NCBI GenBank assembly: GCA_963608705.1
Contig: CAVDHB010000048.1
Location: 3,664 to 67,663, forward strand
Direction: 5' to 3'
Length of the DNA stretch: 64,000 nucleotides
From: Prevotella sp. P5-108
GTDB taxonomy: Bacteria; Bacteroidota; Bacteroidia; Bacteroidales; Bacteroidaceae
Each line of letters opens with the position of its first letter. Positions within the stretch are counted from its first letter, which is position 1. Position numbers and translations under genes: made by a program. Of this stretch, positions 7,794-28,385 are shown piece by piece. The notes beneath the pieces were generated by a model. The model was not told the origin of the DNA. It worked only from the letters and a program-made list of their open reading frames with translations, and searched no databases.

Positions 7794-8000
7794 TTCTGTA
7801 TCTCTACATAAGAGATACAGAAATCGGCTGCAAATATATTAAAAATATTGCACATACAGTGAGTTGGGACGAAAAAAATAACTCACATTATCTTCCAAAA
7901 TTTATCGCTGTTTACTTTCTTTTACAGTTCGTGAGTCCCTTACTCGTACATTATCAATGAATTACATGGCATTCTGTATCTCTTATGTAGAGACGCGGAA
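7794..8000. promoter_or_regulatory. Putative invertible CPS promoter segment flanked by inverted recombination sites; -7 box TATATTTG on minus strand (7838-7831), OFF orientation
   Basis: Left site is 7794-7822, TTCTGTATCTCT-ACATA-AGAGATACAGAA. Right site is 7972-8000, TTCTGTATCTCT-TATGT-AGAGACGCGGAA. The spacers are reverse complements. The only TAnnTTTG match inside the segment is on the minus strand. Confidence 0.65.
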
Positions 8001-8256
8001 GAAACCGGGAAACATAACCCGATATGGCTTTCAAAAAGCAGAGCGTATGACACACAATTTGCTACTCACGGGCTTGTCCGCATCATGCATGCGGAAAGCT
8101 GAAAGACATAAAAGTATTGAAGATTAGTGGAAGTCAGTCTATTGGTTTTTCAATGCTGTGACACATCTCACACCCATGTAACTTGGAAAAGACGCTCTTT
8201 TCCGGGGAAGCCGGGATGTATTCTTCGCACAGCGCATTTTTCAAGTCGTTAACTTT

Positions 8257-10320
8257 ATGTGGTTCGTCGTCAAGACCGAAGTTTTCACCGAGCGGCGTTC
8301 GATAGACACCCTGCGTGAGAAATTCAAGGACACAATAGCCGACATCTATTTTCCCTTAAGAAAGAGGGTCTATAAAGATGACCAAGGGGAAGAGAAAGCG
8401 CGTTTCGTGCCTGTCCTGCGGGGACTGTTCTTCATCAGGGTCCAGGATGAAAGGCGTTTGAGCTGGATTCTTTCCCCGTACGGGTATTTCATGTACAAAG
8501 GCGTTGACTACACGGGAGGTGCGGAGACAGAACGCTTCTTCCTCACCCAGGCGCATCTTCTTTGCGCCGACCGCAAGTCATTGACATTGGGGGAAATCAT
8601 CAGACAGGCGAGAATCCCCGACGAGGAAATGGACCGCTTCATCTATTATACCGATAAACTCGGTGAGGGCATTGAGGGCCTGAGTATCGTGGACCAAAGA
8701 TACGGCGACCTCGTACGGGTGAATGACACCATACGCATTCTCAGCGGACCTTTGACGGGTTGGGTCGGCGTAATCAGGCAAATCAAACACAAGGGCAGGA
8801 AGGACCGTCATCTTCTGGTACGTTTCGGAAACAACCACTGTCTTAACATCTCCAATATCCGCCAGTACGACATGCGGATAGAGCACGAGGCGACGAAGGG
8901 CGCAAAGTCCGAGGAGGTGGGCGTATGGCGCGCCATAGACCAGATGACAGGCTATCTGCAGGCCAAGAATCCCGCCGGCAACGCGGCGGACACATTACGG
9001 AATATTTTCAAAGACTATCAAAAGAAAACCGCGGTCTACCGCAACCGCCGTATGTCAGACATCGCATACAGCGACAAGACAGCCGAAATGAAAGTCGCCC
9101 GGCGGAAAGAGGTTCTTGGGCATATTGACGAATCCATGCGGAACAATTTCCTTATACTCGCCAATTATTTCAAGGCGGACGGTGAGACCGTCGACCGGGG
9201 ATTAAAAGAACTCATCCCCGATGTGGTACTCCGTCCCTTCCTCACCCCCACTTCAGGCGTATCCATTCCACAAGGACAAGAGTATGCGGTTTTGTGCCAT
9301 AACGAAATCACAGAGCTCATCCTTCGCCGCAACCTCCGTGCTTTTTTCCGGGGCGAAGAATACGACTCCGGGAAGTACGCCCCCGTCTTTGAGGAAGACT
9401 ACGAGTATTACGCCCACTTCGCACTTTTGAAAACAGAGGAGGGCAAACTTAAGATTATCTGCTCATGGGGAGGTTTCTATGATTATTACGCCTCACAGAA
9501 CAAGGAAGAGCGGACGAAATTCATCGATGACTTAGAAGCGAAAAAATACCCCCGTCTGCATTACCTGCTGACGGAAAGCCCTTACAAGTTCGAGAGTACG
9601 AACGGCATAGGCGGCTTTTCCCTGGAAACAGACATGAATTACACAACCGATCCAGAGGAATTAGGCCGAGAGGCGAGCGAATACCTCACTCATAATCCCT
9701 CACTCCTCACCCAACTCACAGCCGCTGCCGTGGAAGTGTGGCAAGGAGCGCGCCTACTGGTTTGGCGGAAGTTGCTCCAACGTTACGTCCTGCTCCATAA
9801 GGTGCCGGTCACAGACCAACCTTCCGTCATCACTCACGACACCAAACTGGAAGAGGCGTTTGTGAAGGCGGACGGCAAGCTCGACATGACGAAGGTGGCC
9901 GAAACTTTGACAGCAAGTAAAGGAGTCATTGAGGAACATTTGGAAAACAAAGAGGTGGCGGAAGCCGTTTTCAAGTTTCTTTCCACCTCCTTGGTGTATG
10001 CCACCCATTTCGCCCAAGACGAGCTGTACAACTATGTCTGTGACACGTTCAACCCCGACAGAACCTTGTCCGGGTTGTTCAATCGCATTGTCGAACAATG
10101 CGGGGAGGCATCCAATAGTCGTTCCATCGTCAGGCATCTGCACAAAGGCATGGCCGAGTTGCAAGAGCTGGACTCTTGGAGATATTTCAAGTTCCCTTCA
10201 TTTCTCAAGCAAACGAGAAAGACAGACAAGGTAATTTCTTCCTTTCGTCCATCCACAACGCCTGGCCGGCTTGCAAAAAGGCGATCCGTCAAAGTAAGCA
10301 CTCCTGAAAAAGTATCCTAA
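8257..10320 (+). CDS. UpxY-like NusG-family transcription antiterminator with ~470-aa uncharacterised C-terminal extension
   Basis: The N-terminal ~215 aa shows an NGN-like region (WFVVKTEVFTERRSIDTLREK...FVPVLRGLFFIRV), the UpxY-typical IPDEEMDRFIYY, and a KOW (GDLVRVNDTIRILSGPLTGWVGVIRQIKHKGRKDRHLLVRF). The remaining sequence has no motif I recognise. Confidence 0.8.
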   Translation: MWFVVKTEVFTERRSIDTLREKFKDTIADIYFPLRKRVYKDDQGEEKARFVPVLRGLFFIRVQDERRLSWILSPYGYFMYKGVDYTGGAETERFFLTQAHLLCADRKSLTLGEIIRQARIPDEEMDRFIYYTDKLGEGIEGLSIVDQRYGDLVRVNDTIRILSGPLTGWVGVIRQIKHKGRKDRHLLVRFGNNHCLNISNIRQYDMRIEHEATKGAKSEEVGVWRAIDQMTGYLQAKNPAGNAADTLRNIFKDYQKKTAVYRNRRMSDIAYSDKTAEMKVARRKEVLGHIDESMRNNFLILANYFKADGETVDRGLKELIPDVVLRPFLTPTSGVSIPQGQEYAVLCHNEITELILRRNLRAFFRGEEYDSGKYAPVFEEDYEYYAHFALLKTEEGKLKIICSWGGFYDYYASQNKEERTKFIDDLEAKKYPRLHYLLTESPYKFESTNGIGGFSLETDMNYTTDPEELGREASEYLTHNPSLLTQLTAAAVEVWQGARLLVWRKLLQRYVLLHKVPVTDQPSVITHDTKLEEAFVKADGKLDMTKVAETLTASKGVIEEHLENKEVAEAVFKFLSTSLVYATHFAQDELYNYVCDTFNPDRTLSGLFNRIVEQCGEASNSRSIVRHLHKGMAELQELDSWRYFKFPSFLKQTRKTDKVISSFRPSTTPGRLAKRRSVKVSTPEKVS

Positions 10321-10463: not shown

Positions 10464-12035
10464 ATGATGGAACGACGCAGAAAACTTTACCCCATAGGAA
10501 TACAGACTTTCTCGAACATACGGGAAGGCGACTATCTGTATATAGACAAGACGGAGTATGTGTACTGTATGGCCACATCTGACGCCAAGTACATATTCCT
10601 CAGTCGTCCACGCAGGTTTGGGAAATCTCTGCTCACCTCCACTCTGGAAAGTTATTTCTCCGGGAAAAAGGAATTGTTCAAAGGCTTGGCCATTGAGAAG
10701 CTGGAGAAGGAATGGACGGAATACCCAGTGCTTCACTTTGACATGAGCTTGGGTAAGTACATGGACAAGGAACAGCTGGAAGAATACTTGTGCTATCAGC
10801 TTCTTGACAAAGAATCTGCTTTTGGCATAACAAATCCTGTTAAAGGAACAAACAACCGTCTGACAAACCTTATCAAGACGGCATATAATAAGATCGGCAA
10901 GAAAGTCGTCATTCTCATAGATGAATATGACGCCCCTTTGCTCGATGTGGTGCATGAGGAGAAGAATCTCCCTGTCCTACGTGACGTGATGCGCAACTTC
11001 TACAGTCCGTTGAAAGGTTGCGACCCCTATTTGCGCTTCGTCTTCCTGACTGGAATAACGAAGTTCTCACAGCTCAGCATCTTCAGCGAGCTGAACAACA
11101 TCGACAACATCAGTATGGATGAGCGTTACGCTGCCGTATGTGGCATAACCGAAGAGGAGATGCTCACTCAAATGGACAACGACCTGAACCTGTTGGCGGA
11201 TAATTTGAAAATGACCAAGGAGGATGCTCTGTCAAAATTGAAGGAAAACTACGACGGCTATCACTTCACGTGGCCTTCCCCTGACATCTACAATCCTTTC
11301 AGTTTGCTCACGGCGTTGTCTAAAGGTAAGATCGGATCTTACTGGTTCGGTAGCGGAACTCCCACCTACCTGATAGAGATGCTGGCAAAATATCATGTCA
11401 CACCTCAGAGAATAGGCGGAATGAGTATTCCCGCCGATGCTTTTGATGCCCCGACAGAACGGCTGATAGATATATCACCACTGCTTTACCAAAGTGGATA
11501 TATCACCATCAAAGGCTATTCCTACATTACGGAGCTGTACACATTGGACATACCTAACAAGGAGGTGAGGGTAGGCTTGATGAAAAGCCTGCTTCCGAAT
11601 TATGTCAGCGTCCATACGAACATGGGGCTTTCCACAATAGGACAGATGTACGGGCGCATATATGAGGATGACATGGACGGAGCGTTAGAACTCTTGCAAA
11701 CATTTCTCTCCACCGTTCCCTATTGCGACCATACCGACTACGAGGGGCATTATCAGCAGATGCTCTACGTGATTTTCAGCATCTTGGGAATGTATACCGA
11801 TGTAGAGGTACGCACTCCTCGTGGAAGAGTAGACATAGTAATGCGTTCACCTCATACCTTATATATTATGGAGTTGAAACTCGACAAGGGTGCAGACGTG
11901 GCGATGAACCAGATAGACTTGAAGCAGTATCCTGAGCGTTTCCGCCTGTACAGACTGCCTATCGTTAAGGTGGGTATCAGTTTCGACAGCGGAACACACA
12001 CACTTGGGGAATGGAAGATTACGCAAGACGCTTAA
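10464..12035 (+). CDS. AAA-ATPase-like domain protein with C-terminal PD-(D/E)XK nuclease-like domain (PF09820/PF08011-type)
   Basis: YPIGIQTFSNIREGDYLYIDKTEY...SRPRRFGKSL N-terminus. C-terminal GRVDIVMRSPHTLYIMELKLDK (D..E.K). This family is very common in Bacteroides. Confidence 0.8.
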   Translation: MMERRRKLYPIGIQTFSNIREGDYLYIDKTEYVYCMATSDAKYIFLSRPRRFGKSLLTSTLESYFSGKKELFKGLAIEKLEKEWTEYPVLHFDMSLGKYMDKEQLEEYLCYQLLDKESAFGITNPVKGTNNRLTNLIKTAYNKIGKKVVILIDEYDAPLLDVVHEEKNLPVLRDVMRNFYSPLKGCDPYLRFVFLTGITKFSQLSIFSELNNIDNISMDERYAAVCGITEEEMLTQMDNDLNLLADNLKMTKEDALSKLKENYDGYHFTWPSPDIYNPFSLLTALSKGKIGSYWFGSGTPTYLIEMLAKYHVTPQRIGGMSIPADAFDAPTERLIDISPLLYQSGYITIKGYSYITELYTLDIPNKEVRVGLMKSLLPNYVSVHTNMGLSTIGQMYGRIYEDDMDGALELLQTFLSTVPYCDHTDYEGHYQQMLYVIFSILGMYTDVEVRTPRGRVDIVMRSPHTLYIMELKLDKGADVAMNQIDLKQYPERFRLYRLPIVKVGISFDSGTHTLGEWKITQDA

Positions 12036-12101
12036 ACTCTATGGAGCAGCCTTGAAAGCATGGAACAACTGTGGAAAAAAGCACGTTGAATCCTCTCATG
12101 T

Positions 12102-12551
12102 ATGTCCGAGATAATTTTCAATATATACGGAGGCAATAACCAAATCCTCCCCAATGCCGCTCATGCCGAGCAGCACTTCTACGGCGACGCTTTCGCGGAG
12201 GAACGACTCGTAAGAGAGAGCGTCGCGCCCCTTACGGCAGAGGAGAAGGCACTGTCCATCTATATAAACAAGGTGGAAAAGTTGCGTGGTTACATAGCCC
12301 TCCTTCGTTCCTGCAAGACCGCAGGGGATTTTGGCGAGGTGGTCGCCACGATGCGTCAGCAAGAGCCATCGCTCACCGACGAGCTGATAGTGAAGCGGCG
12401 TTTCCTCTCCCTTCTCCTTCCTTTTCTTCCCAAATGGGAAAAAGGGCGGAGCATAGACAACCTGCGGGTGGCTGTCAACAACGCATGGTCGGCTCGGAAG
12501 AAAACGCTTCATCCGACTGGTCGAACTGCCATTCAAAAGTCATGTAAGTGA
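12102..12551 (+). CDS. Hypothetical protein (149 aa)
   Basis: ATG-initiated ORF co-directional with neighbours, with plausible helical composition. An equal-length antisense ORF exists, so the strand choice is not certain. Confidence 0.5.
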   Translation: MSEIIFNIYGGNNQILPNAAHAEQHFYGDAFAEERLVRESVAPLTAEEKALSIYINKVEKLRGYIALLRSCKTAGDFGEVVATMRQQEPSLTDELIVKRRFLSLLLPFLPKWEKGRSIDNLRVAVNNAWSARKKTLHPTGRTAIQKSCK

Positions 12552-12658
12552 CTTTGCAAAGTTACGAAAGCGTTGATAGAATGAAATAATTATCTGAATG
12601 TTTGATTGTCTCAAATACAATTGTATATCTGTGTCAGATTTTAAAGATAAGACGTATT

Positions 12659-12883
12659 ATGGCAACTCAAGTGTTACGATTCAATCTCACTCAGCAAGCC
12701 GTGCTCAATGTGGTAGCTTGCTTACAATCTGAGCAAGATTTGGCAGATTTGAGACGGACTCTCGTTAAGTTCATGAACGAACGTATGCAGCGAGAAATGG
12801 ACAAATTGTGGGAATCCGGCTCTTGGTCTGAGGAAAGACTGGAATCCATGCGCTCTGAGCACCTACGAACCCTTTACAAATAA
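12659..12883 (+). CDS. Putative antitoxin partner of the PIN toxin (74 aa)
   Basis: Small helical ORF from ATG 12659 ending 7 nt before the PIN gene. The assignment is positional only. Confidence 0.5.
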   Translation: MATQVLRFNLTQQAVLNVVACLQSEQDLADLRRTLVKFMNERMQREMDKLWESGSWSEERLESMRSEHLRTLYK

Positions 12884-12890
12884 TTTACGT

Positions 12891-13304
12891 ATGAAAAGGC
12901 GTATTGTCTTGGATACAAATTGTTTGTTGCAGATAATTTCTCGCAAAAGCAAGAACTATTTCCTGTGGAATGGATTCTTGAATGGTGACTATTGGCTTTG
13001 TTATACGACAGAAGGAGTACGAAGAATTATAGGAACGAAAGCCAATCCAGTCATTGCTTCAATGGTGTTGAACATTATATGCGAAGCACCTAACACGTTA
13101 AGGGTTGACGCCCGTTATCATTGGAATCTGATTACGGAGGATTCGAATGACAATAAGTTTGTTGACTGTGCCATATTCTGTAATGCGGATTATATTGTTT
13201 CTGAAGATAAACATTTTAAGGTCTTGAAAAAAGTTAAATTTCTAAAAGTTTTCGTCATTCGATTAGAAGAATTTGCAAGACTGTTTAGAACACAAGAACA
13301 ATGA
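12891..13304 (+). CDS. PIN-domain toxin (TIGR00305-like)
   Basis: IVLDTNCLL N-terminal acidic motif and DNKFVDCAIFCNADYIVSEDKHF C-terminal motif. Confidence 0.75.
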   Translation: MKRRIVLDTNCLLQIISRKSKNYFLWNGFLNGDYWLCYTTEGVRRIIGTKANPVIASMVLNIICEAPNTLRVDARYHWNLITEDSNDNKFVDCAIFCNADYIVSEDKHFKVLKKVKFLKVFVIRLEEFARLFRTQEQ

Positions 13305-13747
13305 GGTTCTTTAAGCCATAGTTTAAAGGCAAAATCTGTACTGAACATATTATGTACGTTCGGGCTTTTGGCAAGTTGTAAATGTAAAGTAGTTGAAACA
13401 AATGCTCCGTCATGATTATAAGAAATGTACAGGCGAAGAACCCAAGTTCGTAAATGTATGGTAATATGAAAGAGCTATCAAGCGTTGAGAAATCGCTTAT
13501 TCAAATCATGGTTCGCATACGCTAATGAAAAAGACCAATACATGATAATGATGGCCAACGTGCGTGATTTGGAAGAAATGGACATTTATGCTGCTATGAT
13601 TCTGAGAAAAGACAACCCGCATTTTGTCGATTATATATCTGAATTCAGCAAGAATGTCAATATGTTTATGATAAAGTCAGAGTAAGAATCATATAAAACG
13701 AAGGCAACCCGATAGACTGTAATATTGTAGAGTACGCTGTCCAGCTA

Positions 13748-14034
13748 TTGACTACACTGCGCAATTCCATGCTCCACTTTGTCAGCGACGAAAGAGCGAA
13801 GATGGCTGCCACTTACCACAACATTATCAGTACGGTGAAGCTGCAAGGAAGGTCGGCATGGGATTATCTTGTAAAGTTTTTCGTTAATGTCTTTAACGGT
13901 TGCAGGGATTTTATCAGCCTACGGACAGACAATATCGGATTGGCAGTATGCTAATAGTTAATAAACACATTGAATTTTAACCACTCAATATATAGGCACC
14001 TATACAAGGGGTATGCCCTAATTTGAGTGCTTAC
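13748..14034 (+). mobile_element. IS66-family remnant: 3' end of transposase plus terminal inverted repeat
   Basis: LRNSMLHFVSDERAKMAATYHNIISTVKLQGRSAWDYLVKFF matches the conserved IS66 TnpC C-terminus (..NxLFxGSxxGA..YSLIxTCKLNG..YL..). The downstream sequence ends ..GAGTGCTTAC, the reverse complement of a GTAAGC-type IS66 end. No upstream transposase body is present. Confidence 0.65.
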
Positions 14035-14243
14035 TTTATGGGCGAGGAGGTGGATATCTCATTCTTGCCATGTGACTATGTTCGCCATTTTGAAGACGGC
14101 AAGGATGCAGAGGTCACTAAGCCATCCCAAGCTGTCGCTTGATTGTTAAATAATAAAAATCGAAACTTTATTCAAAAATACTGGTATAACTAACCCACTG
14201 ATAAATAGTGTGAACGCTGTATTGGTGGCTTACATTTTAAAAT

Positions 14244-14600
14244 ATGAAAATCATCTTAAATACAGAAAATACATTCCAAGCTGTAAAGTTGAGGGAACTG
14301 GTAATTAAAGGTATCAAGGGGGAAATAGAAAATATAAATATCAATACTTGGAGTTATACTAAGTCTGTTGAAAAATATGATATTGTTTTCCATAACCCAG
14401 AGCAATACTTAAACGATCCAGAAAAAAATGTACTTTTCAAATTAGATGTAGATGGTTCTTTTATCGTACTATCAATTGTATGGTGGAAGAAGAATCCTGA
14501 ACCTTCTGATGAAATGAAATGCTACCATGTAGGTAAGTTGGTAGAAATGCTGTTATGCCATTTTCGAAACAACTATATAAAACTTAGTATTGTTGACTAA
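14244..14600 (+). CDS. Hypothetical protein (118 aa), upstream partner of the HEPN-like gene
   Basis: AT-rich ATG ORF ending 11 nt before the next gene. No recognisable motif. Confidence 0.6.
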   Translation: MKIILNTENTFQAVKLRELVIKGIKGEIENININTWSYTKSVEKYDIVFHNPEQYLNDPEKNVLFKLDVDGSFIVLSIVWWKKNPEPSDEMKCYHVGKLVEMLLCHFRNNYIKLSIVD

Positions 14601-14611
14601 ATATAACGATT

Positions 14612-15922
14612 ATGGGTGCAAATATAGGAAACGAAGATATGAATCCCATCTTAGAAGAGGTTGTAAGTAATTTGAATAACTTTATAGAAAATATTAATTG
14701 CTTACGTGAAACATACGATTTCAGCAAAGGTATGCTTAATCAGCAATTACAATCTGCTACCAAAAGCTATGAGATTTTTATTGCTCCATTTCGTTCATTT
14801 GATGAAAAGGGTAATTTTCAGTTGGATGTTCCTATAGAAAAAATAAAAGAGTACAAGAAGTTATGCAAGAGAAAATGCCGTGCAGAAAAGGCTTTCCAAC
14901 TGATACCGCCTTCATATATTGTAACTTTGGTATCTTTATATGATACTTTTTTGGCTGGTTTTGTTAGGTGTATATATAGCTTGAAGGAAAGTTTGATTCT
15001 TGAAAGTAATATAAGCTTTAGTTTTCGGGATATAGCTGAATATGGCTCTATAAAAGAAGTAAAGAAGAACGTAATAGATAATACCATTGACAGACTATTT
15101 CGCGACTCGCATACGGAACAAATCGACTGGATAGAAAAAGCTATAGATGTTAAGACGTTGAAGCAATTTTCTGGATGGGCTTCTTTTGTTGAATTGACTG
15201 AGAGACGTAATCTTTTTGTTCATTCCGATGGAATGGTATCGTCTCAATATTTGAAAGAATGCAAAAAGTGCAATTATGACACTGATGGTATTGAGGTTGG
15301 AAGTAAACTCTTTGCTGATGATAGTTACTTCGAAAACTCATACAAATTACTTTATGAAATGTCTGTAATGATGACACAGATATTACTTAACAAGCTTTAT
15401 ATTGGTGTCTATACAAACGATACTGGGGTGCGAGATAAAATATTGATAGGTAATATCTATGAATTAATTAGCGAAAAACTTTACGATGTAGCTATTAATG
15501 TTTCGATGTTTGCTCGTGATGGAAAAAGTTTTAAGCGTAATAATAAAGATAGAACTTATATTGAGTTAAATTTGGCTCAAGCTTATAAATGGTCAGGGCA
15601 TAATGACAAATGCCTTGCAGTATTGAGGGATTTGGATACTAGCGCAATGAATCTTGACTTACAGATACCTAAGAAAGTGTTAGAAGAAAAATATGATGAG
15701 GTATATACTATGATGAAATCTTTAGGTTCAGGCAGTGATATACTTACCAAAGAGGCTTATCGTGAATGGCCAATATTCAAAGAAATAAGAAAGCAAGAGA
15801 AGTTCAAGAATGTATTTGAAATGATATTTGCAGAAAAATTATTATTACAGAATGTTCCAACCTCAGTGGAATCTTCTATAAAATGCAAGGATGAAATATC
15901 CTCAAGAGAAGTCGAATTATAA
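14612..15922 (+). CDS. HEPN-like (RNxxxH motif) protein with helical-repeat C-terminal region
   Basis: ELTERRNLFVHSDG contains R199-N-x3-H204 (nt 15206-15223), the canonical HEPN RNase motif in a helical context. The C-terminal ~170 aa looks TPR/helical-repeat-like. Confidence 0.6.
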   Translation: MGANIGNEDMNPILEEVVSNLNNFIENINCLRETYDFSKGMLNQQLQSATKSYEIFIAPFRSFDEKGNFQLDVPIEKIKEYKKLCKRKCRAEKAFQLIPPSYIVTLVSLYDTFLAGFVRCIYSLKESLILESNISFSFRDIAEYGSIKEVKKNVIDNTIDRLFRDSHTEQIDWIEKAIDVKTLKQFSGWASFVELTERRNLFVHSDGMVSSQYLKECKKCNYDTDGIEVGSKLFADDSYFENSYKLLYEMSVMMTQILLNKLYIGVYTNDTGVRDKILIGNIYELISEKLYDVAINVSMFARDGKSFKRNNKDRTYIELNLAQAYKWSGHNDKCLAVLRDLDTSAMNLDLQIPKKVLEEKYDEVYTMMKSLGSGSDILTKEAYREWPIFKEIRKQEKFKNVFEMIFAEKLLLQNVPTSVESSIKCKDEISSREVEL

Positions 15923-15934
15923 TTCCTAGAAAAA

Positions 15935-17473
15935 GTGTCAACTCAAACATCAGATAACAACAAACGAATAGCAAAGAACACGCTGCTGCTGTATGTGCGG
16001 ATGCTGTTCATGATGGCAGTGTTGCTGTACACAAGCCGTGTCATATTGAATACGCTGGGTGTGCAGGACTTCGGACTGTACAATGTCGTTGCCGGGTTCG
16101 TGACCATGTTCACGTTCATCAATACCGCCATGGCATCCGCCACACAACGGTATCTGAACTTTGAGCTTGGAAAGAATAATGATGAACGGCTGAGAAAAGT
16201 GTTCTCAACGAGCGTGAATATCCATGCGGTGATATCTTTGGTCATATTGCTACTTGCGGAAACCGTCGGGCTGTGGTTCGTATACACTCAACTGACAATT
16301 CCGAACGGGCGTATGGATGCCGTGCTTTGGGTCTATCAGTGTGCCATACTTTCCACTATCGTGTTGGTGATGAGCGTTCCGTACAATGCCGCAATCATCG
16401 CCCATGAAAAGATGGGGGCATTCGCCTACATATCCGTTGCGGAGGTTACTCTGAAACTGCTCATTGTCTACATGCTGACGATAGGCGATTTTGACAAACT
16501 GAAACTGTATGCCATACTGATGCTGGCTGTGCAGGTGTTTGTAAGAATCATATATGGCTGGTACAGCGGAAAGCATTTCAAGGAGACTAAGTATCATTGG
16601 ATATGGGACAAGGCGTTGTTCAAGGAAATGACAGGTTTTGCAGGGTGGAGCTTGTTCGGCAATCTTGCGGCTGTCGCTTTTACTCAAGGCGTGAACGTCC
16701 TGTTGAACATATTTTTTGGTCCAGTTGTCAATGCAGCCCGTGGTGTTACTGTGCAGGTACAGAATGCGATAATGAACTTCTGCCGCAATTTCCAGATGGC
16801 ATTGAACCCTCAAATTGTAAAACTCTATGCTTCTGATGAATTGGGAAGTATGCACAGACTGATATACCGCAGCACAAAGTTCTCGTTTTTCCTGTTGCTG
16901 TTACTCTCCCTTCCTGTCATGATAGAAGCGGACTATATATTAAAATTGTGGCTGAAAATTGTTCCCGAGCATACAGTCTCATTTGTCAGGATAATCCTTT
17001 GCATATCACTTGTTGATGCGATAGGCAATCCGCTGATAACAGCGGCACAGGCAAATGGCCATATCCGTAAATACCAGGCTGTGGTGGGCGGAATTCTTTT
17101 GGGCATAGTTCCAGTATCATACATCGTGTTGAAACTTGGCGCACCGCCAGTAGGCGTATTCATTGTACACTTCACAATGATCGTGTTGGCTCATGTCTCA
17201 CGTGTTTGGATGATACGCCCGATGATTTCGATGCGCATAAGGGAATATATCGTGAAAGCCATTCTTCCTTTGCTCTATGTGAGCGTTCCGTCAGTGCTTG
17301 TGTCAGTCATGGCGTTCATGCTGATGCCTGAAGGCTTCCTTGGCTTCATTGCCGTATGCCTCGTGTGCGCCTTGTCAGTATCTATGTTGACATACGTTCT
17401 TGGTTTTGACGCACATGAGCGTGAGTTCGTGAAAAGTAAAGTTGTCGGAATGCTTCAAAAGATACGCAAATGA
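15935..17473 (+). CDS. wzx: Wzx-type polysaccharide flippase (MOP superfamily)
   Basis: Multi-TM protein with conserved IAKNTLLLYVRMLFMMAVLLYTSRVILNTLGVQDFGLYNVVAG N-terminus. That region precedes the first in-frame ATG, so the GTG start at 15935 is implied. Confidence 0.85.
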   Translation: MSTQTSDNNKRIAKNTLLLYVRMLFMMAVLLYTSRVILNTLGVQDFGLYNVVAGFVTMFTFINTAMASATQRYLNFELGKNNDERLRKVFSTSVNIHAVISLVILLLAETVGLWFVYTQLTIPNGRMDAVLWVYQCAILSTIVLVMSVPYNAAIIAHEKMGAFAYISVAEVTLKLLIVYMLTIGDFDKLKLYAILMLAVQVFVRIIYGWYSGKHFKETKYHWIWDKALFKEMTGFAGWSLFGNLAAVAFTQGVNVLLNIFFGPVVNAARGVTVQVQNAIMNFCRNFQMALNPQIVKLYASDELGSMHRLIYRSTKFSFFLLLLLSLPVMIEADYILKLWLKIVPEHTVSFVRIILCISLVDAIGNPLITAAQANGHIRKYQAVVGGILLGIVPVSYIVLKLGAPPVGVFIVHFTMIVLAHVSRVWMIRPMISMRIREYIVKAILPLLYVSVPSVLVSVMAFMLMPEGFLGFIAVCLVCALSVSMLTYVLGFDAHEREFVKSKVVGMLQKIRK

Positions 17474-18717
17474 TTGACATAAAAGATAAGAAGGACTGCT
17501 GCGGCTGCTCTGCCTGTATGCAGCGTTGTCCTAAGCATTGCATTTCAATGCAGGAAGATGATGAGGGCTTTCTTTACGCAAAGGCGGATGCCTCACTTTG
17601 TATCCAATGTGGTTTGTGCGAGAAAGTATGCCCGTTGCTGAACCCTAAGGATAAGATTAGTCCGAAAGAAGTGCTTGCCGTGAAGAGCCGCAATGAGGAA
17701 GAGCGGTTGAAAAGCTCCTCCGGCGGTGTGTTCATCGCCTTGGCACGTGAAGTTATCGGCAATGGCGGCGTGGTATTCGGGGCTGTCTTTGATGAGAGCT
17801 GGGAAGTCCATCATGTCTATGCCGAACGTATTGAGGATGTCTATCCGATGATGGGCAGCAAGTATGTACAGAGCCGGATAGAAAACACGTTCAAGGAAGC
17901 TGAAGGATTCTTGAAGAAAGGACGCTTGGTTCTGTTCACTGGCAGTCCTTGTCAGATAGCCGGGCTTCGCTCATTCCTCCGCATCAAAGACTATCCCAAC
18001 CTGCTTGCCATCGATTTCCTATGCCATGGTGTACCGAGTCCCGGTGTTTGGAGGCGGTATCTTGCCGAGACATACAGTAGTTGGAGACCAGACAAAGATA
18101 ATAAAAGCCGCCTTCAGGCGGCCGCTGGAAAAAATACCGTTTTACTTTCTCTAAACACGATGTCCCCGATAGGGGGCGTCTCGTTTAGAGACAAATCGAC
18201 TGGCTGGAAAAAATACCGTTTTGTCGTCCGTGGAAAGTCCGCCTCCAAGGCGGACCAAAATTCCGTTTTGTCGTCCGATATACACTATGATAACGCTTAT
18301 ATGCGTGGATTCCTTAACGATGTCTACCTCCGTCCATCATGTTACGAATGCCGTTGTAAGAACGGTGCGAACCACAGCGACCTGACCATAGCCGACTATT
18401 GGGGCGCACGAGTGACTGATCAGGACTTCGATGACGACAAAGGATTGGGACTTGTGCTTGTCAACACTGACAAAGGTAAGGCTTATTTCGACTGCCTTGA
18501 TATGGATTTCCGCAAGATAACCATGGAAAAGGCACACCTCTGCAACGGTGGCTTCAACGAGCATACCAAACCGCATCCGAAGCGAGAGAAGTTCTTTGCA
18601 ATGATTGAGGATGGGGAAACAATACACTCAGCCGTTGATGGATGTCTGCATGTTAGTTTCAGTAAAATGTTGCTGGCTAAGGTGAAAGGTATAATGAAAC
18701 GATTGAGAGGCATATAG
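17470..18717 (+). CDS. 4Fe-4S / coenzyme F420 hydrogenase beta-subunit-like (FrhB-like) protein, copy 1
   Basis: Two ferredoxin motifs (CCGCSACMQRCP, CIQCGLCEKVCP) followed by an FrhB/FdhB-type domain. The start overlaps the wzx stop (ATGA). Confidence 0.85.
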   Translation: MIDIKDKKDCCGCSACMQRCPKHCISMQEDDEGFLYAKADASLCIQCGLCEKVCPLLNPKDKISPKEVLAVKSRNEEERLKSSSGGVFIALAREVIGNGGVVFGAVFDESWEVHHVYAERIEDVYPMMGSKYVQSRIENTFKEAEGFLKKGRLVLFTGSPCQIAGLRSFLRIKDYPNLLAIDFLCHGVPSPGVWRRYLAETYSSWRPDKDNKSRLQAAAGKNTVLLSLNTMSPIGGVSFRDKSTGWKKYRFVVRGKSASKADQNSVLSSDIHYDNAYMRGFLNDVYLRPSCYECRCKNGANHSDLTIADYWGARVTDQDFDDDKGLGLVLVNTDKGKAYFDCLDMDFRKITMEKAHLCNGGFNEHTKPHPKREKFFAMIEDGETIHSAVDGCLHVSFSKMLLAKVKGIMKRLRGI

Positions 18718-18739
18718 AAATATATTTAGAATGCATCAA

Positions 18740-18774
18740 TTTGGGTGCTTAATATTGGTATTGCCCTAAGTTTG
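18740..18774 (+). promoter_or_regulatory. Candidate internal promoter for the DUF262/DUF1524 gene
   Basis: TAAGTTTG (18767-18774) fits the TAnnTTTG -7 box, 28 nt before ATG 18802. A TTTG at 18740-18743 gives a 23-nt spacer, longer than the 19-21 optimum. Confidence 0.4.
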
Positions 18775-18801
18775 TAATTTGTTTATTCAAATTATATTGT
18801 T

Positions 18802-20535
18802 ATGAATATCAAGCCTGCTGATAAAACAATAAAAGCTCTTCTAAAATCAGGCCGTAAATTTATGATACCACGATTTCAGAGAGATTACTCTTGGGAAAAG
18901 AAAAATTGTGAAGAGTTCCTTGAAGATATAATTAAGGGATTAATTTATAAAAACGGTAAGTTAGGAACTTCTTCATATTTTTTGGGAACAATGCTTTTCA
19001 TTGGTAACTTTGATGAGAAAAGTGATAAAGAAATTCAAATTGTAGACGGACAACAACGCATTACAACAATAACAATATTGTTTTCGGTTATTTCCGATAT
19101 TTTTAGAGAAAAGGGTGAAGAGAAATTAAGTGAATTGATTTTCAGCTATATAATGACAAGTGATGATGATGGGAATTCTGTCAGAATTATAAAAAGTGAA
19201 AGTAGTTACCCATATTTTGCTTTTTATATCCAAGATAGAGAAAAAACGCAAATGCCTGAACCATCGTCTGAAGAAGAATTATGTATTCAAAGTACGTATA
19301 AGTTGTTTAAAAACCGTTTGGATGAGAAAAACCTAAAATCCTTTTTGGAAAAGAACTGTGAGAACTTTGATGTTGGTGTTGGACTTATTGAAATACTAAA
19401 GGCTATAAGAGACCAAATTTTGAATTGTATATTTATTTCAATATCTACAGATGACAAATTACAGGCTTATAGAATTTTTGAGATTCTTAATGCAAAAGGT
19501 AAAAAACTCGCAGCAATAGATTTGATTAAAAATAGATTGTTTGAGAAACTTCCCCAAACAGAACCTGCCGATTTTGCGAAATGCAAATGGGATGAACTAA
19601 AAAGAATAATAAACGAGTGTGATGTGGCTTCCGTTGGGATAGGGACTTTTTACCGACATTTTTGGAATTCTTGTTACAAACAAACTGGGACAAATCAATT
19701 GTATGACAAATTCTTGTCAATGATTAATAAAAGTGATTATGAATCGTTCCTTAATTCTTTGGTTGTTAATGCAAAATATTATGTACAAATAATAAAGCCT
19801 TTAAGAGAAAATTACGAAAATAGGAAAGAGTATTTTTGGCTAGTACAAAGTTTTAAAGTCCTTTCTGATTACTTCGGAATTGCACAAGTTCGTGTCGTAT
19901 TGATGGCATTGTTATGGGCGAAAGACAACAACCGCATATTCACTGCAGATTTTAAGCAATCAATCTTGTTTTTAGAACATTTCCATTTCGCTTATACTGC
20001 TTTATTATCTGGCAAGGCAAATAAACTTGATGGTATTTATTCAAAATTCGCAATAGCTTTAAGGAAAAGTAACAGTAAAAATCAAAGTAAGCAGATAATA
20101 AAGACGAATCTTTATGACTGCTTGAAAGTATTGCTTCCAACTGAAGAACAGTTTACAGAAAAATTTTTATCTCTTAGTTATAGTAAAAAGTCTGCGCCAT
20201 CTAATATGAAGTGCAAATATGCACTTCTTAAATTGAACTGCTATTATCAAGGAAAGGAAATTTTTGAAGATGACTCTTCAATAGAGCACATCATCCCTGA
20301 GTGTGAAGAAAGTGATGCCAATAACATTGGCAATTTAATTATATTAGAACAAAAATTGAATACAGAAGCCGATAAAAAGGATTATTCTGAAAAACAGCTG
20401 ATATATAAAAAATCTAATTACAAATGGATTAGAAAATTTTCAGAAACGCATCCATCATGGATACAAGATATGATAAATGATAGGGCTAAAGAAATGGCGA
20501 CTTTATTTTACAATAAGATTATCGTCTTCAATTAA
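18802..20535 (+). CDS. DUF262/DUF1524 (GmrSD-like) putative type IV restriction/nuclease protein
   Basis: N-terminal FMIPRFQRDYSWEKKN and VDGQQRITT (DUF262/ParB-like). C-terminal SIEHIIPE...NIGNLIILEQKLNTEA (DUF1524 His-Me finger). Confidence 0.85.
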   Translation: MNIKPADKTIKALLKSGRKFMIPRFQRDYSWEKKNCEEFLEDIIKGLIYKNGKLGTSSYFLGTMLFIGNFDEKSDKEIQIVDGQQRITTITILFSVISDIFREKGEEKLSELIFSYIMTSDDDGNSVRIIKSESSYPYFAFYIQDREKTQMPEPSSEEELCIQSTYKLFKNRLDEKNLKSFLEKNCENFDVGVGLIEILKAIRDQILNCIFISISTDDKLQAYRIFEILNAKGKKLAAIDLIKNRLFEKLPQTEPADFAKCKWDELKRIINECDVASVGIGTFYRHFWNSCYKQTGTNQLYDKFLSMINKSDYESFLNSLVVNAKYYVQIIKPLRENYENRKEYFWLVQSFKVLSDYFGIAQVRVVLMALLWAKDNNRIFTADFKQSILFLEHFHFAYTALLSGKANKLDGIYSKFAIALRKSNSKNQSKQIIKTNLYDCLKVLLPTEEQFTEKFLSLSYSKKSAPSNMKCKYALLKLNCYYQGKEIFEDDSSIEHIIPECEESDANNIGNLIILEQKLNTEADKKDYSEKQLIYKKSNYKWIRKFSETHPSWIQDMINDRAKEMATLFYNKIIVFN

Positions 20536-20559
20536 TAAACAAATGAGTTCAATAAACAA

Positions 20560-21672
20560 ATGAAAATTGGAATACTCACCCTGCCGTTGCATACCAACTA
20601 CGGCGGGATACTTCAGGCGTATGCCCTTCAGACCGTACTTGAACGCATGGGCCATGAGGTGGTTGTGTTTGACACTCCAAAGGAATGGTGGCATCTGCCT
20701 TTGTGGAAAGCTCCGTTGGTTTATGGTAAACGCTTCCTGAAAAAATGCTTAATAGATAAAAGCACTGAGATATTTGTTGAACGAAAACAGACCAAGGAAT
20801 ATCCTATAGTCAGCCAATACACATCAGAATTTATAAAGAAGTACATTCATATCAAGGCTATAGTGGATTTCTCTGAACTGAAGGAAAATGATTATGATTG
20901 TATTGTGGTTGGCAGTGACCAAGTTTGGCGGCCCAAATATTTCCCTTCTGACATATCTGAGGCGTATCTGAAGTTCGCTGAAGATTGGAATATAAAGAGG
21001 ATAGCATATGCAGCCTCATTCGGGACGAATGAATGGGAATACACATCGGAACAGACGGCGGAATGCACAAAGTTAATAAAAATGTTCGATGGTGTATCCG
21101 TTCGAGAGGATTCTGCCGTTGGCTTGTGCCGTAAGTACTTCGGAATGGAGGTTAAACACGTATTAGACCCTACTATGCTATTGCGTAAAGAGGATTATGT
21201 AAGACTCTTTGAAAACGCCAACACACCGAAGAGCAAAGGAACACTGTTGTGCTATGTATTGGATGAAACTTCTGAAAAGATAGCATTGATTCAGAAAATT
21301 GCCGAAGAGCGAAACCTCATCCCTTTCCGTGTGAACTCAAAAGTGGAAGACCCTTCAGCCCCCTTAAATGAGCGGATACAGCCTCCCGTTGAGCAGTGGC
21401 TGAGGGGATTTTATGATGCGGAGTTCGTTGTGACCGACTCATTCCATGCCTGCGTGTTCTCGATTCTGTTTGGAAAACAGTTCTTGGTTATCGGCAACAA
21501 AGAAAGGGGACTTTCACGGTTTGGGTCTCTGTTGGAGATGTTGGGGTTGGAGGATAGAATGGTTACAAGAGAACATGAAAATCTGGAAGACATAGATTAT
21601 ACGAAAGTCTACGAACTGCTATCGAACAAAAGAAGATATTCTACAGACTTGTTGAATGAATTCAACAAGTAG
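20560..21672 (+). CDS. Polysaccharide pyruvyl transferase, copy 1
   Basis: KIGILTLPLHTNYGGILQAYALQ N-terminus and VVTDSFHACVFSILFGKQF motif. Confidence 0.85.
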   Translation: MKIGILTLPLHTNYGGILQAYALQTVLERMGHEVVVFDTPKEWWHLPLWKAPLVYGKRFLKKCLIDKSTEIFVERKQTKEYPIVSQYTSEFIKKYIHIKAIVDFSELKENDYDCIVVGSDQVWRPKYFPSDISEAYLKFAEDWNIKRIAYAASFGTNEWEYTSEQTAECTKLIKMFDGVSVREDSAVGLCRKYFGMEVKHVLDPTMLLRKEDYVRLFENANTPKSKGTLLCYVLDETSEKIALIQKIAEERNLIPFRVNSKVEDPSAPLNERIQPPVEQWLRGFYDAEFVVTDSFHACVFSILFGKQFLVIGNKERGLSRFGSLLEMLGLEDRMVTREHENLEDIDYTKVYELLSNKRRYSTDLLNEFNK

Positions 21673-22114
21673 TAAATCCTTAGGGCGTGAATTGAAAAAC
21701 TCCAAGTTGAGAATGGTATAAAGGTACTTTCAATTTGTAATACACTCTCGTTGACATTACTCGTAAATGGGCGTTATTCATACATACTTTCTATATTTTT
21801 CACGGTTTACAAGGCTCAAGCACACTTTCGTAAAGATGGTATTTACGAACCGTAACCACCATCTTGGAGCGTCAAAAATATGCGGTTTCATTGATACAAA
21901 CACCGCCTTTATTATATTGTTGTCATCCTGTGAATAATGGCATTCAGATGGTGAACCTTTCAATTCATAACTGAAAAGGCATGAACAGCGACCAGTGAAC
22001 CGTGTGAATGATTAAAAACGCAAAATATTTGTATAGCGTTTATACCTTCCAAGACACGTTACAACACCATAAAAGTGTGGCAAAATTTCAAGAATATAAT
22101 ATAGATATGACATT

Positions 22115-23086
22115 ATGGAAACAAATACAAAGATAAGCGTAATAGTCCCCATTTACAACGTGGAGAAATACCTCCATCGCTGTGTGGACAGTATACTTGC
22201 ACAAACATTCACCGACTTTGAAGTGCTTCTGATTGATGATGGCAGCGCAGATAGTTCCGGAAATATTTGTGATGAATATGCGGACAGAAACTATAGAATT
22301 AAAACAATTCATCAGAAAAACCAGGGAGTGACAGCAGCACGGTGGAATGGGGTAATAAACTCAAAAGGCCATTATATATGCTTTGTAGATGCAGATGATA
22401 CCTTGCCAGAAGATTCCTTAGGCACGCTATACAATATGGCAATATCTAAGAATATAGATATTCTTATCACCTCTGAATTATATGATAATAATGGTAATAT
22501 ACATGAGAACAAAATAGATTCTGATGGTTTCATGGGCAGTTATACATTTATTAAATGCCAACTAACGGGAAGCTTCATTTGGCTTGCACCCCATGGCAGG
22601 ATTTTCAAACGAGAGGTTCTTGTTCGTTCGCAGTTTAACAGAATCTCTCGTGATATAGTTCAGAATGAGGATATGATAATGAATATATTAGCATCAATGG
22701 AGAGTAAGCATATTTATGTATTGAGTAATTACTATTCTTATGTTTATCATTATACAGAATCAGGAGCGGGACATATCAATACAGAATGTCAATATTGGTG
22801 TATGCTTTATGATGTATTAACGTCCCTAATTGGGCAAAAGGATAATCGTATTTTGCACGGAATACAAAAAGAGCTACATTTATTTTTATTAGATCGAACA
22901 TATAAGAAGAAATGGTCAGGAAAAGGTATAAAATACAAAAGAGAATTGATAAATTATTTCTCTAAAATAACAGATCTGAAATTAGAAGATCGAAAAAGAG
23001 TTCTGATTTTAAGGTATCCATATATCTCATTTCCCTTGAAGTGCTTATTTTTTATTATGAAAAAATTTGAGTTATGTTTGAGATAA
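22115..23086 (+). CDS. Glycosyltransferase family 2
   Basis: ISVIVPIYNVEKYLHRCVDSILAQTFTDFEVLLIDDGSADSS and FVDADD. Confidence 0.9.
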   Translation: METNTKISVIVPIYNVEKYLHRCVDSILAQTFTDFEVLLIDDGSADSSGNICDEYADRNYRIKTIHQKNQGVTAARWNGVINSKGHYICFVDADDTLPEDSLGTLYNMAISKNIDILITSELYDNNGNIHENKIDSDGFMGSYTFIKCQLTGSFIWLAPHGRIFKREVLVRSQFNRISRDIVQNEDMIMNILASMESKHIYVLSNYYSYVYHYTESGAGHINTECQYWCMLYDVLTSLIGQKDNRILHGIQKELHLFLLDRTYKKKWSGKGIKYKRELINYFSKITDLKLEDRKRVLILRYPYISFPLKCLFFIMKKFELCLR

Positions 23087-24258
23087 AAATTGTATTCATA
23101 TCATTAAAACTTTTAGAGTTTCTTGCTTTTTGCATATCAGGCTTTTTATTGTCAAGAACAAAGAGAAAAGTCTCATATTGGAAAATTGCTTGTATTCCTA
23201 TTATCGCATTTACTGTAGTTGAAGGATTGAGATTTGGGAGATTCATAGATTGGAATTTATATTATTTTCGATACATAGAAATGGGAACTAATCCTTCAAA
23301 AGCTGATTATGAGCCATTCTTTGTTTTTATAAACTATATTATATATAAAGTAGGATTACCATATTGGTCTTTTATCTCAATTCAATGTTTTCTCCTTATA
23401 TTCTCGATATTGAAATTATGTGAGAACTTTAAACCTTATTTGAAATATATTCTGCCAATGACATTAGTTACTGTCTATTCAAATGAAATGTTTATTAGAT
23501 GGTATATGGGGTTTAGTTTTATTTTATTGTCACTATGTGCTATATTGAATAAGAAAATATTACAGTCATATATATATGCTTGTTTAGCTTGCCTTTGCCA
23601 TGTCGGTTTTGTTATATATATCCCCATTATTGTCTTATATAAATATATCAATGTTCATAGTTTAAACTCTAAAATATCTACAATTCTATTTCTGGTTGTA
23701 ACTTTTGCCATGGGATTGTCAGATTTACAATTTATTGTTTCAATCACTGATATGTTTTTGTCTTTTGGATTGGGATCTTTAGGAGGTGGAAAAGTTGGTA
23801 ACTACTTAAATGATACAGAAGCTTTAGTTTCTGGAGATTGGGGGACTGCAGGTGTTATGGGAAGAGACTTAAGTACAAATATAAAAATGGCTATTGCTTA
23901 CGTACCTGCAATATTATATGGTTCAAGGGTATTGGAACAATATAAATACGGGAAACTTCTTTATAATTTATTTGTTATTGGTGCAATTATTGGTCCGTTG
24001 TTCCTTCAAATAGAAATATTCAATAGAATAGCAGACAGCTTTATTTTCTTTTCGTCAATAATTTGTGGGGTAACATATTATTATTTCCTTAACTCCAAGG
24101 TTAAGAACAAGTTGTTACGCTATCTATTAATAACACTTTGTTTGGCATGCTTCATATATCCATATTTATATGATATTTTTAATCGGGCTAATGATAATTA
24201 CATGCTATTCATATGGGATGCAAACGGCAGAACTTATTTGCCATATTTAATGGAATAA
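23074..24258 (+). CDS. EpsG/Wzy-like polysaccharide polymerase (polytopic membrane protein)
   Basis: About 10 hydrophobic segments and aromatic-rich loops, in the position typical of a CPS polymerase. Confidence 0.7.
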   Translation: MFEIKIVFISLKLLEFLAFCISGFLLSRTKRKVSYWKIACIPIIAFTVVEGLRFGRFIDWNLYYFRYIEMGTNPSKADYEPFFVFINYIIYKVGLPYWSFISIQCFLLIFSILKLCENFKPYLKYILPMTLVTVYSNEMFIRWYMGFSFILLSLCAILNKKILQSYIYACLACLCHVGFVIYIPIIVLYKYINVHSLNSKISTILFLVVTFAMGLSDLQFIVSITDMFLSFGLGSLGGGKVGNYLNDTEALVSGDWGTAGVMGRDLSTNIKMAIAYVPAILYGSRVLEQYKYGKLLYNLFVIGAIIGPLFLQIEIFNRIADSFIFFSSIICGVTYYYFLNSKVKNKLLRYLLITLCLACFIYPYLYDIFNRANDNYMLFIWDANGRTYLPYLME

Positions 24259-24277
24259 TCTGATTTATATATCGAAT

Positions 24278-25252: not shown

Positions 25253-25260
25253 TAAAGAAC

Positions 25261-26367: not shown

Positions 26368-26915
26368 TAACAACCAAAAAAGAACTGGGAGAATACATCA
26401 GATGCGACCGTTATGCACAGGGTATGCAGCATCCGTTAATGGCTAAATTCACTTATGGTGAGAACGCCATGATAAGACGTTATATGACTAATCTTCGCAA
26501 GACAGAATACTGGAGCACTAAACATTGTCTTTGGGGACGATTGATGTATGGCTTCCACTTCTTAAAGCATAGACGTATGTCACTTAAATATGGCATGTAC
26601 ATAGGCTTGAACGCAGTTGACAAGGGGTTCTTCATCGTCCATCCAGGTTTTATACGAATAGATTCATGGGTTCATATAGGCAAGAACTGTACCGTGTTGC
26701 CTATGGTTCTCTTTGGCAGGGCGCATCCGATAAACGGAACAGAAATATTCGTTGGTGACAATTGTTATGTGGGAACAGGTGCCACAGTCCTCGGGCCTGT
26801 AAAGATAGGAAACAATGTGACTATAGCCGCAGGTGCAGTAGTGACAAAAGATGTGCCAGACAACGTGGTAGTTGCTGGTGTGCCTGCTAAGATAGTGAAA
26901 TATAAAGAAGAGTAA
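26364..26915 (+). CDS. Hexapeptide-repeat O-acetyltransferase (serine acetyltransferase-like)
   Basis: Left-handed beta-helix repeats VGDNCYVGTGATVLGPVKIGNNVTIAAGAVVTKDVPDNVVVAGVPAKIV. ATGA overlap with the upstream GT. Confidence 0.85.
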   Translation: MITTKKELGEYIRCDRYAQGMQHPLMAKFTYGENAMIRRYMTNLRKTEYWSTKHCLWGRLMYGFHFLKHRRMSLKYGMYIGLNAVDKGFFIVHPGFIRIDSWVHIGKNCTVLPMVLFGRAHPINGTEIFVGDNCYVGTGATVLGPVKIGNNVTIAAGAVVTKDVPDNVVVAGVPAKIVKYKEE

Positions 26916-26959
26916 TAATAGATTGGAAAATCATTATTCAAAATGATAACAAAACAAAT

Positions 26960-27796: not shown

Positions 27797-27798
27797 TT

Positions 27799-28380: not shown

Positions 28381-28385
28381 GAAAA

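Follow-up and report, generated by a model that had tools for sequence, protein, structure and literature searches.

Positions 8257..10320 on the + strand of a 64,000-nucleotide stretch of Prevotella sp. P5-108 (contig CAVDHB010000048.1), called the window here, form an uninterrupted open reading frame (ORF) that starts at an ATG and encodes a protein of 687 aa. The protein is a member of the NusG/Spt5 superfamily, a conclusion that is reached by four independent routes. Judged by sequence, it represents an undescribed family of enlarged NusG paralogues that is restricted to Prevotellaceae. The architecture of this family is an NGN domain, a KOW domain and a conserved core extension of ~300 aa (D3-D5), to which a 130-aa module (D6) may or may not be added. 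The gene is preceded by an invertible promoter and a conserved leader, two parts of the module that were not seen in an earlier note on this DNA, and it heads a locus of co-directional glycan genes, as that note had claimed. We suggest that the protein is probably a UpxY-like, processive antiterminator that is specific to its operon and bears an additional platform, and we hold this view with moderate confidence.

The giant gene and its family

The earlier note described an intact 687-aa frame that begins with NGN and KOW domains, and on this point the ORF, Pfam, NCBIfam, the PDB profile and Foldseek agree. Residues 2-65 score 22.4 bits with the NusG/NGN family of Pfam (PF02357), slightly over its cut-off of 22.2, and KOW4_SPT5 matches residues 150-176 at 19.2 bits, which is under the Pfam cut-off of 27. 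When compared with the PDB sequences, the family profile matches LoaP (PDB code: 8f5g) in two segments. One is NGN, aligned on LoaP residues 7-89, and the other is KOW, for which the KOW domains of 2e70 and 1nz9 are matched as well. The AlphaFold2 model of the full-length protein has a mean pLDDT of 77, with KOW modelled as a five-strand beta-barrel. In Foldseek this model finds LoaP, NusG, RfaH and Spt5 at a probability of ~1, and its full-length alignments to LoaP, NusG and RfaH cover ~200 columns. For NGN, the probability is 1.0 to the NusG NGN structures 1nz8, 8e74 and 8eos. The top structural match for the N-terminal part is 8f5g, in which LoaP is in complex with leader RNA.

The description of the protein as UpxY-like is borne out in part. 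UpxY (NF033644) is the closest named family and the best-scoring one in NCBIfam (45.7 bits, E 6.7e-12), but the score is below the curated cut-off of 100 bits. LoaP (NF033641) reaches 26.3 bits (E 6.6e-6) against a cut-off of 125. The giant protein falls outside the curated UpxY family on account of its score, its size and the lack of upxZ in second position. The gene is also more GC-rich than the glycan genes, as had been noted, with values of 0.49-0.525 versus 0.29-0.36 in most of them.

Among 5.8 billion proteins searched, there were 151 relatives of 47-100% identity. More than 80 full-length homologues are present in Prevotellaceae; full-length homologues are 47-91% identical, and the closest homologue is P0002 at 91%. 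There are two length classes, a long one of ~660 aa and a short one of ~525 aa in which the last ~140 residues are missing, and the lengths across the family run from ~470 to 731 aa. A profile of the extension only, run against 1.84 billion representatives, found 151 proteins, and in every near-full-length match the extension starts at ~residue 200-240, after the NGN-KOW unit. Scanning one genome per species gave 33 loci, all of which can be assigned to Segatella (the copri complex and hominis), Prevotella spp. or Prevotellamassilia; a few hits are in otherwise-labelled bins of metagenome-assembled genomes, on short contigs. Several paralogous copies occur per genome, for example L012 and L031 in S. 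hominis BCRC 81118. In S. copri DSM 18205 (L170, NZ_CP085933.1 133936-152100) and strain G8 (L022, NZ_CP146524.1), the pair of leader and giant gene is located on extrachromosomal elements of 138-167 kb rather than on the chromosome, and it is also found on an IMG/VR contig (L045). In RefSeq, the homologue from S. copri DSM 18205 (WP_006847512.1) is a "hypothetical protein". We found no description of the family in the literature on UpxY in Prevotella, NusG in Segatella, C-terminal extensions of NusG or invertible promoters in copri.

Mean identity to the window protein is 49% for NGN, 79% for KOW, 58% for D3, 67% for D4, 69% for D5 and 51% for D6. Therefore, the extension is constrained at least as much as the NusG part. 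This bears on the explanation that the gene is an assembly or annotation artefact or a pseudogene, in which a short UpxY-like gene has been fused in frame to an unrelated ORF. The last 25 residues are found only in the window and are followed by a tandem-repeat array, which suggests a rearrangement at the 3' end. However, the same uninterrupted architecture is present in 33 genome loci and 82 metagenome loci. The 90% clusters of the family hold 4,424 and 8,076 sequences, nearly all of 659-666 aa. In addition, the junction region is conserved, and the model is confident across the domains. The full-length homologues in genomes and metagenomes exclude the sequencing-error fusion that the earlier note had raised as a concern, and we regard the artefact explanation as effectively refuted, with next to no chance of being right.

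The C-terminal extension and the question of UpxZ

The extension had been described as belonging to no assignable family, and the searches of Pfam, NCBIfam, PDB and Foldseek are all in line with this. Residues ~212-687 gave no Pfam match at E<=10 when searched as two halves, and the full protein gave none for the extension at E<=0.1; NCBIfam has no match to the extension. The sequence-profile search of PDB found only NusG, LoaP and Spt5, all within the N-terminal 200 residues, and Foldseek of the full model against PDB found NusG-type matches only. The extension was also modelled separately, with a pLDDT of 78.5. The best Foldseek hits of this AlphaFold model (E 0.19 in PDB and 0.12 in BFVD) are designed helical repeats and unrelated viral proteins, and we dismiss them as noise. 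The possibility that the extension is a common annotated domain was checked as well, and none is present in Pfam, PDB or Foldseek. No PADLOC model matches the giant protein.

D6 has stand-alone homologues of 120-160 aa elsewhere in Bacteroidales, which have the common motif HF..DEH..YFDD.Y.PDY. One is located just 3' of a cassette with a 272-aa UpxY-like gene and upxZ (L009, 109-2328). Another is located towards the 5' end of a capsule locus, together with an 89-aa ORF that overlaps it (L167-L169; L167, 2236-2894), and a third comes after an HTH_3 gene (L166, 229-972). D6 also forms the C-terminus of ~400-aa proteins downstream of RADAR-like RdrA/RdrB (L011, 954-7074). Since these contexts are mixed, we dropped the stand-alone homologues as evidence of a capsule-specific role. 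For the same reason, D6 looks like an unannotated and mobile helical module of ~125 aa that was captured by fusion.

No UpxZ follows the giant gene, as the earlier note had observed, and PF06603 was not matched among the downstream window ORFs that were scanned. The further proposal that the extension replaces UpxZ found no support from homology: hhalign of the extension against UpxZ gives a probability of 0.06%, with a UpxZ profile that is thin (2 sequences only). The claim that the gene has no partner is right for the window but not for the family. A conserved ORF of 79-80 aa is located 5-24 nt past the giant stop codon in 32 of the 76 homologous loci, behind long and short forms, and it is absent from the window by tblastn. 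It forms a small family of its own, to which neither Pfam nor NCBIfam has a match, and it is a better positional analogue of upxZ than the extension or D6.

In the window, ~3 tandem units of 22 nt (AAGTATCCTAAGATACATCGCC) are found at 10308-10379, right after the giant stop codon, each with the palindrome GTATCyTAAGATAC. They sit at the junction with an AAA-ATPase_like/PDDEXK_9 gene, where homologous loci bear the 79-aa ORF, and could either serve as binding sites for a protein or be what a rearrangement has left behind. The unique tail of the protein, the tandem array and the ATPase/nuclease gene after the stop codon together suggest that the 3' end of the giant gene has been locally rearranged in the window.

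One alternative for the extension is that it is a built-in cross-talk module. In this case the extension, and especially D6, would do the job of UpxZ by inhibiting paralogous factors or its own NGN and KOW domains, with one locus expressed per cell. The lack of upxZ in the window, the presence of several paralogous copies in genomes such as that of S. hominis BCRC 81118, and the D6 homologues beside the UpxY-like and UpxZ cassette (L009) and in the capsule locus (L167-L169) speak for it. However, there is no detectable similarity to UpxZ in hhalign or in Pfam, and the short forms are entirely without D6. The D6 homologues near HTH_3 and RADAR-like genes resemble general mobile cargo more than regulators of capsules, and by its position the separate 79-aa ORF is the better analogue of upxZ. 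We therefore consider the cross-talk module to be quite improbable.

The invertible promoter and the conserved leader

Two arms of 29 nt, which are inverted repeats of the tyrosine-recombinase type and 90% complementary, enclose a promoter segment upstream of the gene. Within each arm, a 5-nt spacer separates two inverted half-sites of 12 nt. The segment bears a Bacteroidetes-type -7 box (TATATTTG) on its minus strand (plus-strand 7831-7838), directed away from the gene; therefore, the switch is OFF in the window. Of 35 genome loci, ~18 have the same repeat motif with the same geometry. That the segment inverts in nature is directly evident from four metagenome contigs (L001-L004) that have an identical protein (P0014) and identical flanks, because in L001 the inner sequence is exactly the reverse complement of its counterpart in L002, L003 and L004. 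The window segment aligns with the L001 orientation. With inverted repeats around a promoter-bearing segment that is found in both orientations, the element is an inverton.

Inverted repeats flank 75 of the 129 non-redundant leaders. Judged by the TAnnTTTG -7 box, 52 of these are ON, 18 are OFF, 4 are ambiguous and 1 has no promoter box. The other 54 leaders are without inverted repeats, and a fixed TAnnTTTG box is present in 52 of them, where the estimated chance expectation is ~7% per locus. In 20 of 94 loci, a gene for a tyrosine integrase (Phage_int_SAM_5 + Phage_integrase) is found immediately upstream in the same orientation, and some of these loci encode giant proteins that share only 33-45% identity. 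When the L001 integrase was used as a tblastn query, no recombinase homologue turned up across the 64-kb window. Since the arms are nearly identical between loci, it is plausible that the window switch would be flipped in trans. At 7314-7342, inside the 3' end of a cutC-like gene, there is a third copy that looks like a recombinase site and has 76% complementarity to the right arm across 29 nt; 14 nt of this region (7331-7344) perfectly complement 7792-7805 at the left arm. This site could serve a larger alternative inversion or be a pseudo-site.

The leader, of ~230 nt, extends from just past the right arm to ~12 nt before the ATG. It is conserved far better than the protein and has a nearly invariant core of ~70 nt. 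In its alignment (A3), loci with proteins of 33-91% identity reach a mean identity of 78%. Three hairpins are predicted by RNAalifold, with another conserved one further downstream. In the predicted structure 95.4% of cells are paired and 8 pairs have changed on both sides. Only 0-1 of 500 shuffles reach the observed pairing values, and slid controls pair at 36-47%. Helix 3 is almost invariant and has several fixed G-U pairs; therefore, it could form only in the + strand transcript, which is consistent with an RNA read from that strand. No Rfam family matches the leader. The only Rfam matches at E<=1 are to a miRNA model and fall on the inverted repeats, and we treat them as an artefact. The ops element of E. 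coli (GGCGGTAGnnTG, one mismatch allowed) does not occur in 7400-8300, and its 4 matches elsewhere in the window are at the level expected by chance.

The leader is always a single copy, also in the window, and precedes the start codon by 90-340 nt. It directly follows a promoter segment of ~150 bp in over half of the loci. A metagenome scan for exact matches to the 21-nt leader core returned >120 stretches. In 115 cases the motif is followed by 450 nt or more of sequence, and a giant gene is present in 82 of these and missing from 33. When redundancy is removed, 116 leaders have enough downstream sequence, of which 91 have the giant gene (62 long, 22 short and 7 partial) and 25 do not. The leaders without it run into RhuM-like, antitoxin-like, cytidylyltransferase, UDP-glucose dehydrogenase or DUF262 genes. 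Some of these loci keep fragments of the gene (matches to query residues 128-161), which suggests that they are deletion derivatives. Most leaders without the giant gene keep an ON-oriented inverton or a fixed promoter. Two such leaders per contig, 6-9 kb apart on one strand, are found in L050 (4437 and 10712, minus) and L060 (3111 and 11817, minus). With these occurrences, the leader fits a cis-acting recruitment or regulatory element that may also be served in trans.

Downstream genes, proposed mode of action and significance

From 10464 to 37653, everything in the window is on the + strand (Table 1). In the 12 kb after the leader, 86% of the ORFs of at least 100 aa are co-directional (29 loci). 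In L007 the next gene, 21 nt downstream of the giant gene, encodes a CapD-like dehydratase, in L026 the giant gene abuts a CapD-like capsule gene, and in L005 a defence set rich in TIR domains comes ahead of the sugar genes. At the equivalent position, homologous loci have TIR-domain, RhuM and AAA_15 genes. The phase variation of the capsule may thus co-switch anti-phage genes. Within the glycan genes of the window, an FrhB/FdhB-like iron-sulfur protein is paired twice with a polysaccharide pyruvyl transferase (17470-18717 with 20560-21672, and 30410-32667), which points to either two steps of pyruvylation or the duplication of a cassette. A serine dehydratase gene (38368-39585, minus strand) is found at the distal end of the array. 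In L001 and L007, a serine dehydratase gene is located a few kb upstream of the giant gene, and these positions hint at a conserved chromosomal site with a different arrangement.

Table 1. Positions of the switch, the leader, the domains of the giant protein and the downstream genes in the window
Feature	Residues	Window position	Strand	Description	Evidence
Left inverted-repeat arm, recombinase site		7794..7822	.	TTCTGTATCTCT-ACATA-AGAGATACAGAA, palindromic around the 5-nt spacer	
Invertible promoter segment		7823..7971	-	149 bp; OFF in the window	
Right inverted-repeat arm		7972..8000	.	TTCTGTATCTCT-TATGT-AGAGACGCGGAA; spacer is the reverse complement of the left spacer	
Structured 5' leader		8020..8245	+	Near-invariant core GACATAAAAGTATTGAAGATTAGTGGAAGTCAGTCTATTGG...TCAATGCTGTGA; at least three predicted hairpins and one at ~8210-8240	
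NGN domain	1-135	8257..8661	+	Most variable part of the protein	Pfam, NCBIfam, profile, model, Foldseek
KOW domain	143-210	8683..8886	+	Most conserved part, 79% mean identity	Pfam, profile, model, Foldseek
Core extension, D3-D5		8908..9807	+	Common to long and short forms	Homologue alignment, models
D3	218-320			Five-helix bundle	Model
D4	325-465			Alpha/beta domain; motifs LIPD..LRPFLTPTSG, DEDYEYYAH, CSWGGFYDYY	Model
D5	466-517			Helical; motif AAAVE.WQGARLLVWR.LLQRYVLLHKVP	Model
Linker	518-528			Weakly conserved	
D6	529-662	9841..10242	+	C-terminal helical module, without counterpart in the ~525-aa short forms	
Tail and stop codon	663-687	10243..10320	+	Unique to the window, basic, pLDDT <50	
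Cargo		10464..15922	+	AAA-ATPase_like/PDDEXK_9 gene, PIN toxin with small upstream ORF, unassigned ORFs; without the 79-aa partner, without upxZ	
PIN toxin and small upstream ORF		12602-13304	+	Defence/toxin genes, co-directional	
Glycan-synthesis genes, presumed target operon		15935..33389	+	GT2, GT4 and WecG glycosyltransferases, EpsG polymerase, acetyltransferase, two FrhB-like/pyruvyl-transferase pairs	
GmrSD/HEC-06-type nuclease		18802-20535	+	Defence/toxin gene between capsule genes, co-directional	
DUF4747 gene and 193-aa ORF		26960-28380	+	Defence/toxin genes, co-directional	
512-aa multi-pass membrane ORF in the glycan array				Putative Wzx-type flippase	No Pfam match
Type IV restriction-like helicase		35443-37653	+	Defence/toxin gene at the end of the array, co-directional	

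We propose the following model for the operon-specific antiterminator. When the promoter segment has been flipped ON, RNA polymerase would transcribe the leader and pause there, and the NGN domain would load onto the elongation complex. The modified polymerase would then cross the array of ~25-30 kb, which consists of low-GC and foreign-looking genes, without premature termination. The most probable role of the conserved extension is to offer an additional surface on which an invariant partner docks, and it would thereby keep the factor engaged. This is because KOW and D4-D5 have the highest conservation in the protein, and the leader core has the highest among the nucleic-acid parts. The docking partner that we prefer is the leader RNA, in a tether like that of N with nut or of LoaP; otherwise it may be RNA polymerase, NusA or the ribosome. 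The weakest step of the model is the role of the extension, which we infer.

There are several points against this model. Antitermination, pausing and leader binding are all steps that we infer from the behaviour of UpxY, RfaH and LoaP as NusG paralogues (PMC7819879, PMC11685472, PMC12691694), and the curated cut-offs of UpxY and LoaP are both missed. The extension has no recognisable nucleic-acid-binding fold in Foldseek searches of PDB and BFVD, and its net charge is near neutral. No canonical intrinsic terminator was seen in the stretch from the leader to the ATG. Paralogous loci have almost the same leader core; therefore, a locus specificity of the Bacteroides type is not evident. In L001 and L170, an antisense block separates the giant gene from the glycan genes, and thus a single read-through transcript does not fit these two loci. 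The block (L001, 12256-13672; L170, 11429-12999) encodes an N-acetylmuramoyl-L-alanine amidase, a 'smalltalk' protein and an HU-family DNA-binding protein.

The same antisense blocks belong to the case for another explanation, in which the giant protein is not a cis regulator of the downstream glycan genes. It would instead act in trans or autonomously, as a factor for every leader-bearing operon or as part of a defence or mobile island at the 5' end of the capsule locus. This is favoured by the leaders that lack a giant gene (33 of the 115 occurrences and 25 of the 116 non-redundant ones), among them those that occur as two per contig in L050 and L060, and by the invariance of the leader core across paralogues. 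The dense defence and toxin cargo directly downstream in the window and in L005, and the copies on large extrachromosomal elements and on one IMG/VR contig, are also in its favour. However, wherever the giant gene is present, it lies within 90-340 nt of a leader on the same strand, and in L007 and L026 it directly adjoins a CapD-like capsule gene. It has no match among the PADLOC models, and the gene fragments at some leader-only loci point to deletion derivatives. In our judgement this explanation is unlikely.

A more specific form of antitermination is that the giant protein and the ~230-nt leader constitute an RNA-anchored system. D3-D5 would bind the nascent leader RNA and tether the factor to RNA polymerase over 25-30 kb, like lambda N with nut. 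Because the leader core is common to paralogous loci and leader-only operons, one expressed copy could switch on a regulon of capsule and defence operons in trans, with the invertons choosing which leaders are transcribed. We put this forward tentatively, as a conceivable though not a likely arrangement.

The antiterminator that we favour resembles the UpxY proteins of Bacteroides in that a NusG paralogue is encoded by the gene that opens a capsule locus and follows a long 5' leader (PMC11685472, PMC7819879). In both, the phase-variable promoter inverts between inverted repeats and NGN is the most variable domain, which in Bacteroides UpxY bears the locus specificity (PMC11685472). However, the giant family is ~470-731 aa in length, compared with ~165-190 aa for UpxY (a 164-position model), and has 3-4 extra domains with no known fold. 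Its leader of ~230 nt is near-invariant, structured and common to all paralogues, whereas UpxY has a short and locus-specific ops site. The giant gene is not followed by UpxZ, and an unrelated 79-aa ORF is present in ~40% of the loci. A tyrosine integrase is adjacent in ~20% of the giant loci, whereas UpxY relies on one global invertase.

LoaP of Firmicutes, which binds a leader RNA hairpin (PDB code: 8f5g; PMC12691694), is the best match in PDB for NGN and KOW in both sequence and fold. It is likewise encoded beside its target operon, and in both cases a structured leader RNA is a plausible recruitment element. It differs in its size (~170 aa), in having no extension, in coming from another phylum and in targeting polyketide operons. 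RfaH of E. coli, which uses ops, is also an operon-specific NusG paralogue that is recruited in the leader of long, horizontally acquired operons for surface polysaccharides. However, the leader of the giant gene is without ops, RfaH is without an extension, and in the model the giant KOW forms a beta-barrel and shows nothing of the alpha-helical, auto-inhibited state. Among bacterial NusG proteins, the nearest precedent for extra domains comes from Thermotoga maritima and Aquifex, where domain II stabilises binding to the elongation complex (PMC7819879). That domain is inserted within the NGN of a housekeeping factor, whereas ~300-470 residues are appended after the KOW of a specialised paralogue in the giant family. 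By Foldseek, domain II has no fold similarity to the extension.

Worldwide, Segatella copri is one of the most abundant bacteria of the gut. To our knowledge, nothing is known about how S. copri controls its capsule, and all current models that we know of are derived from UpxY and UpxZ of Bacteroides. The order of a phase-variable promoter, a NusG paralogue and a capsule operon is already known from Bacteroides; what is new here is an oversized, multi-domain paralogue with its own conserved leader. The solution in Prevotellaceae is structurally different, since it combines a NusG paralogue of 3-4 times the usual size, a new conserved leader and locus-linked invertons. For the transcription field, the family offers a naturally occurring bacterial NusG to which large domains of unmatched fold have been appended, for which eukaryotic Spt5 is the only well-known parallel that we are aware of. 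Furthermore, it would tie the phase-variable expression of the capsule to embedded anti-phage and toxin genes, which bears on the dynamics between phages and their hosts in the gut.

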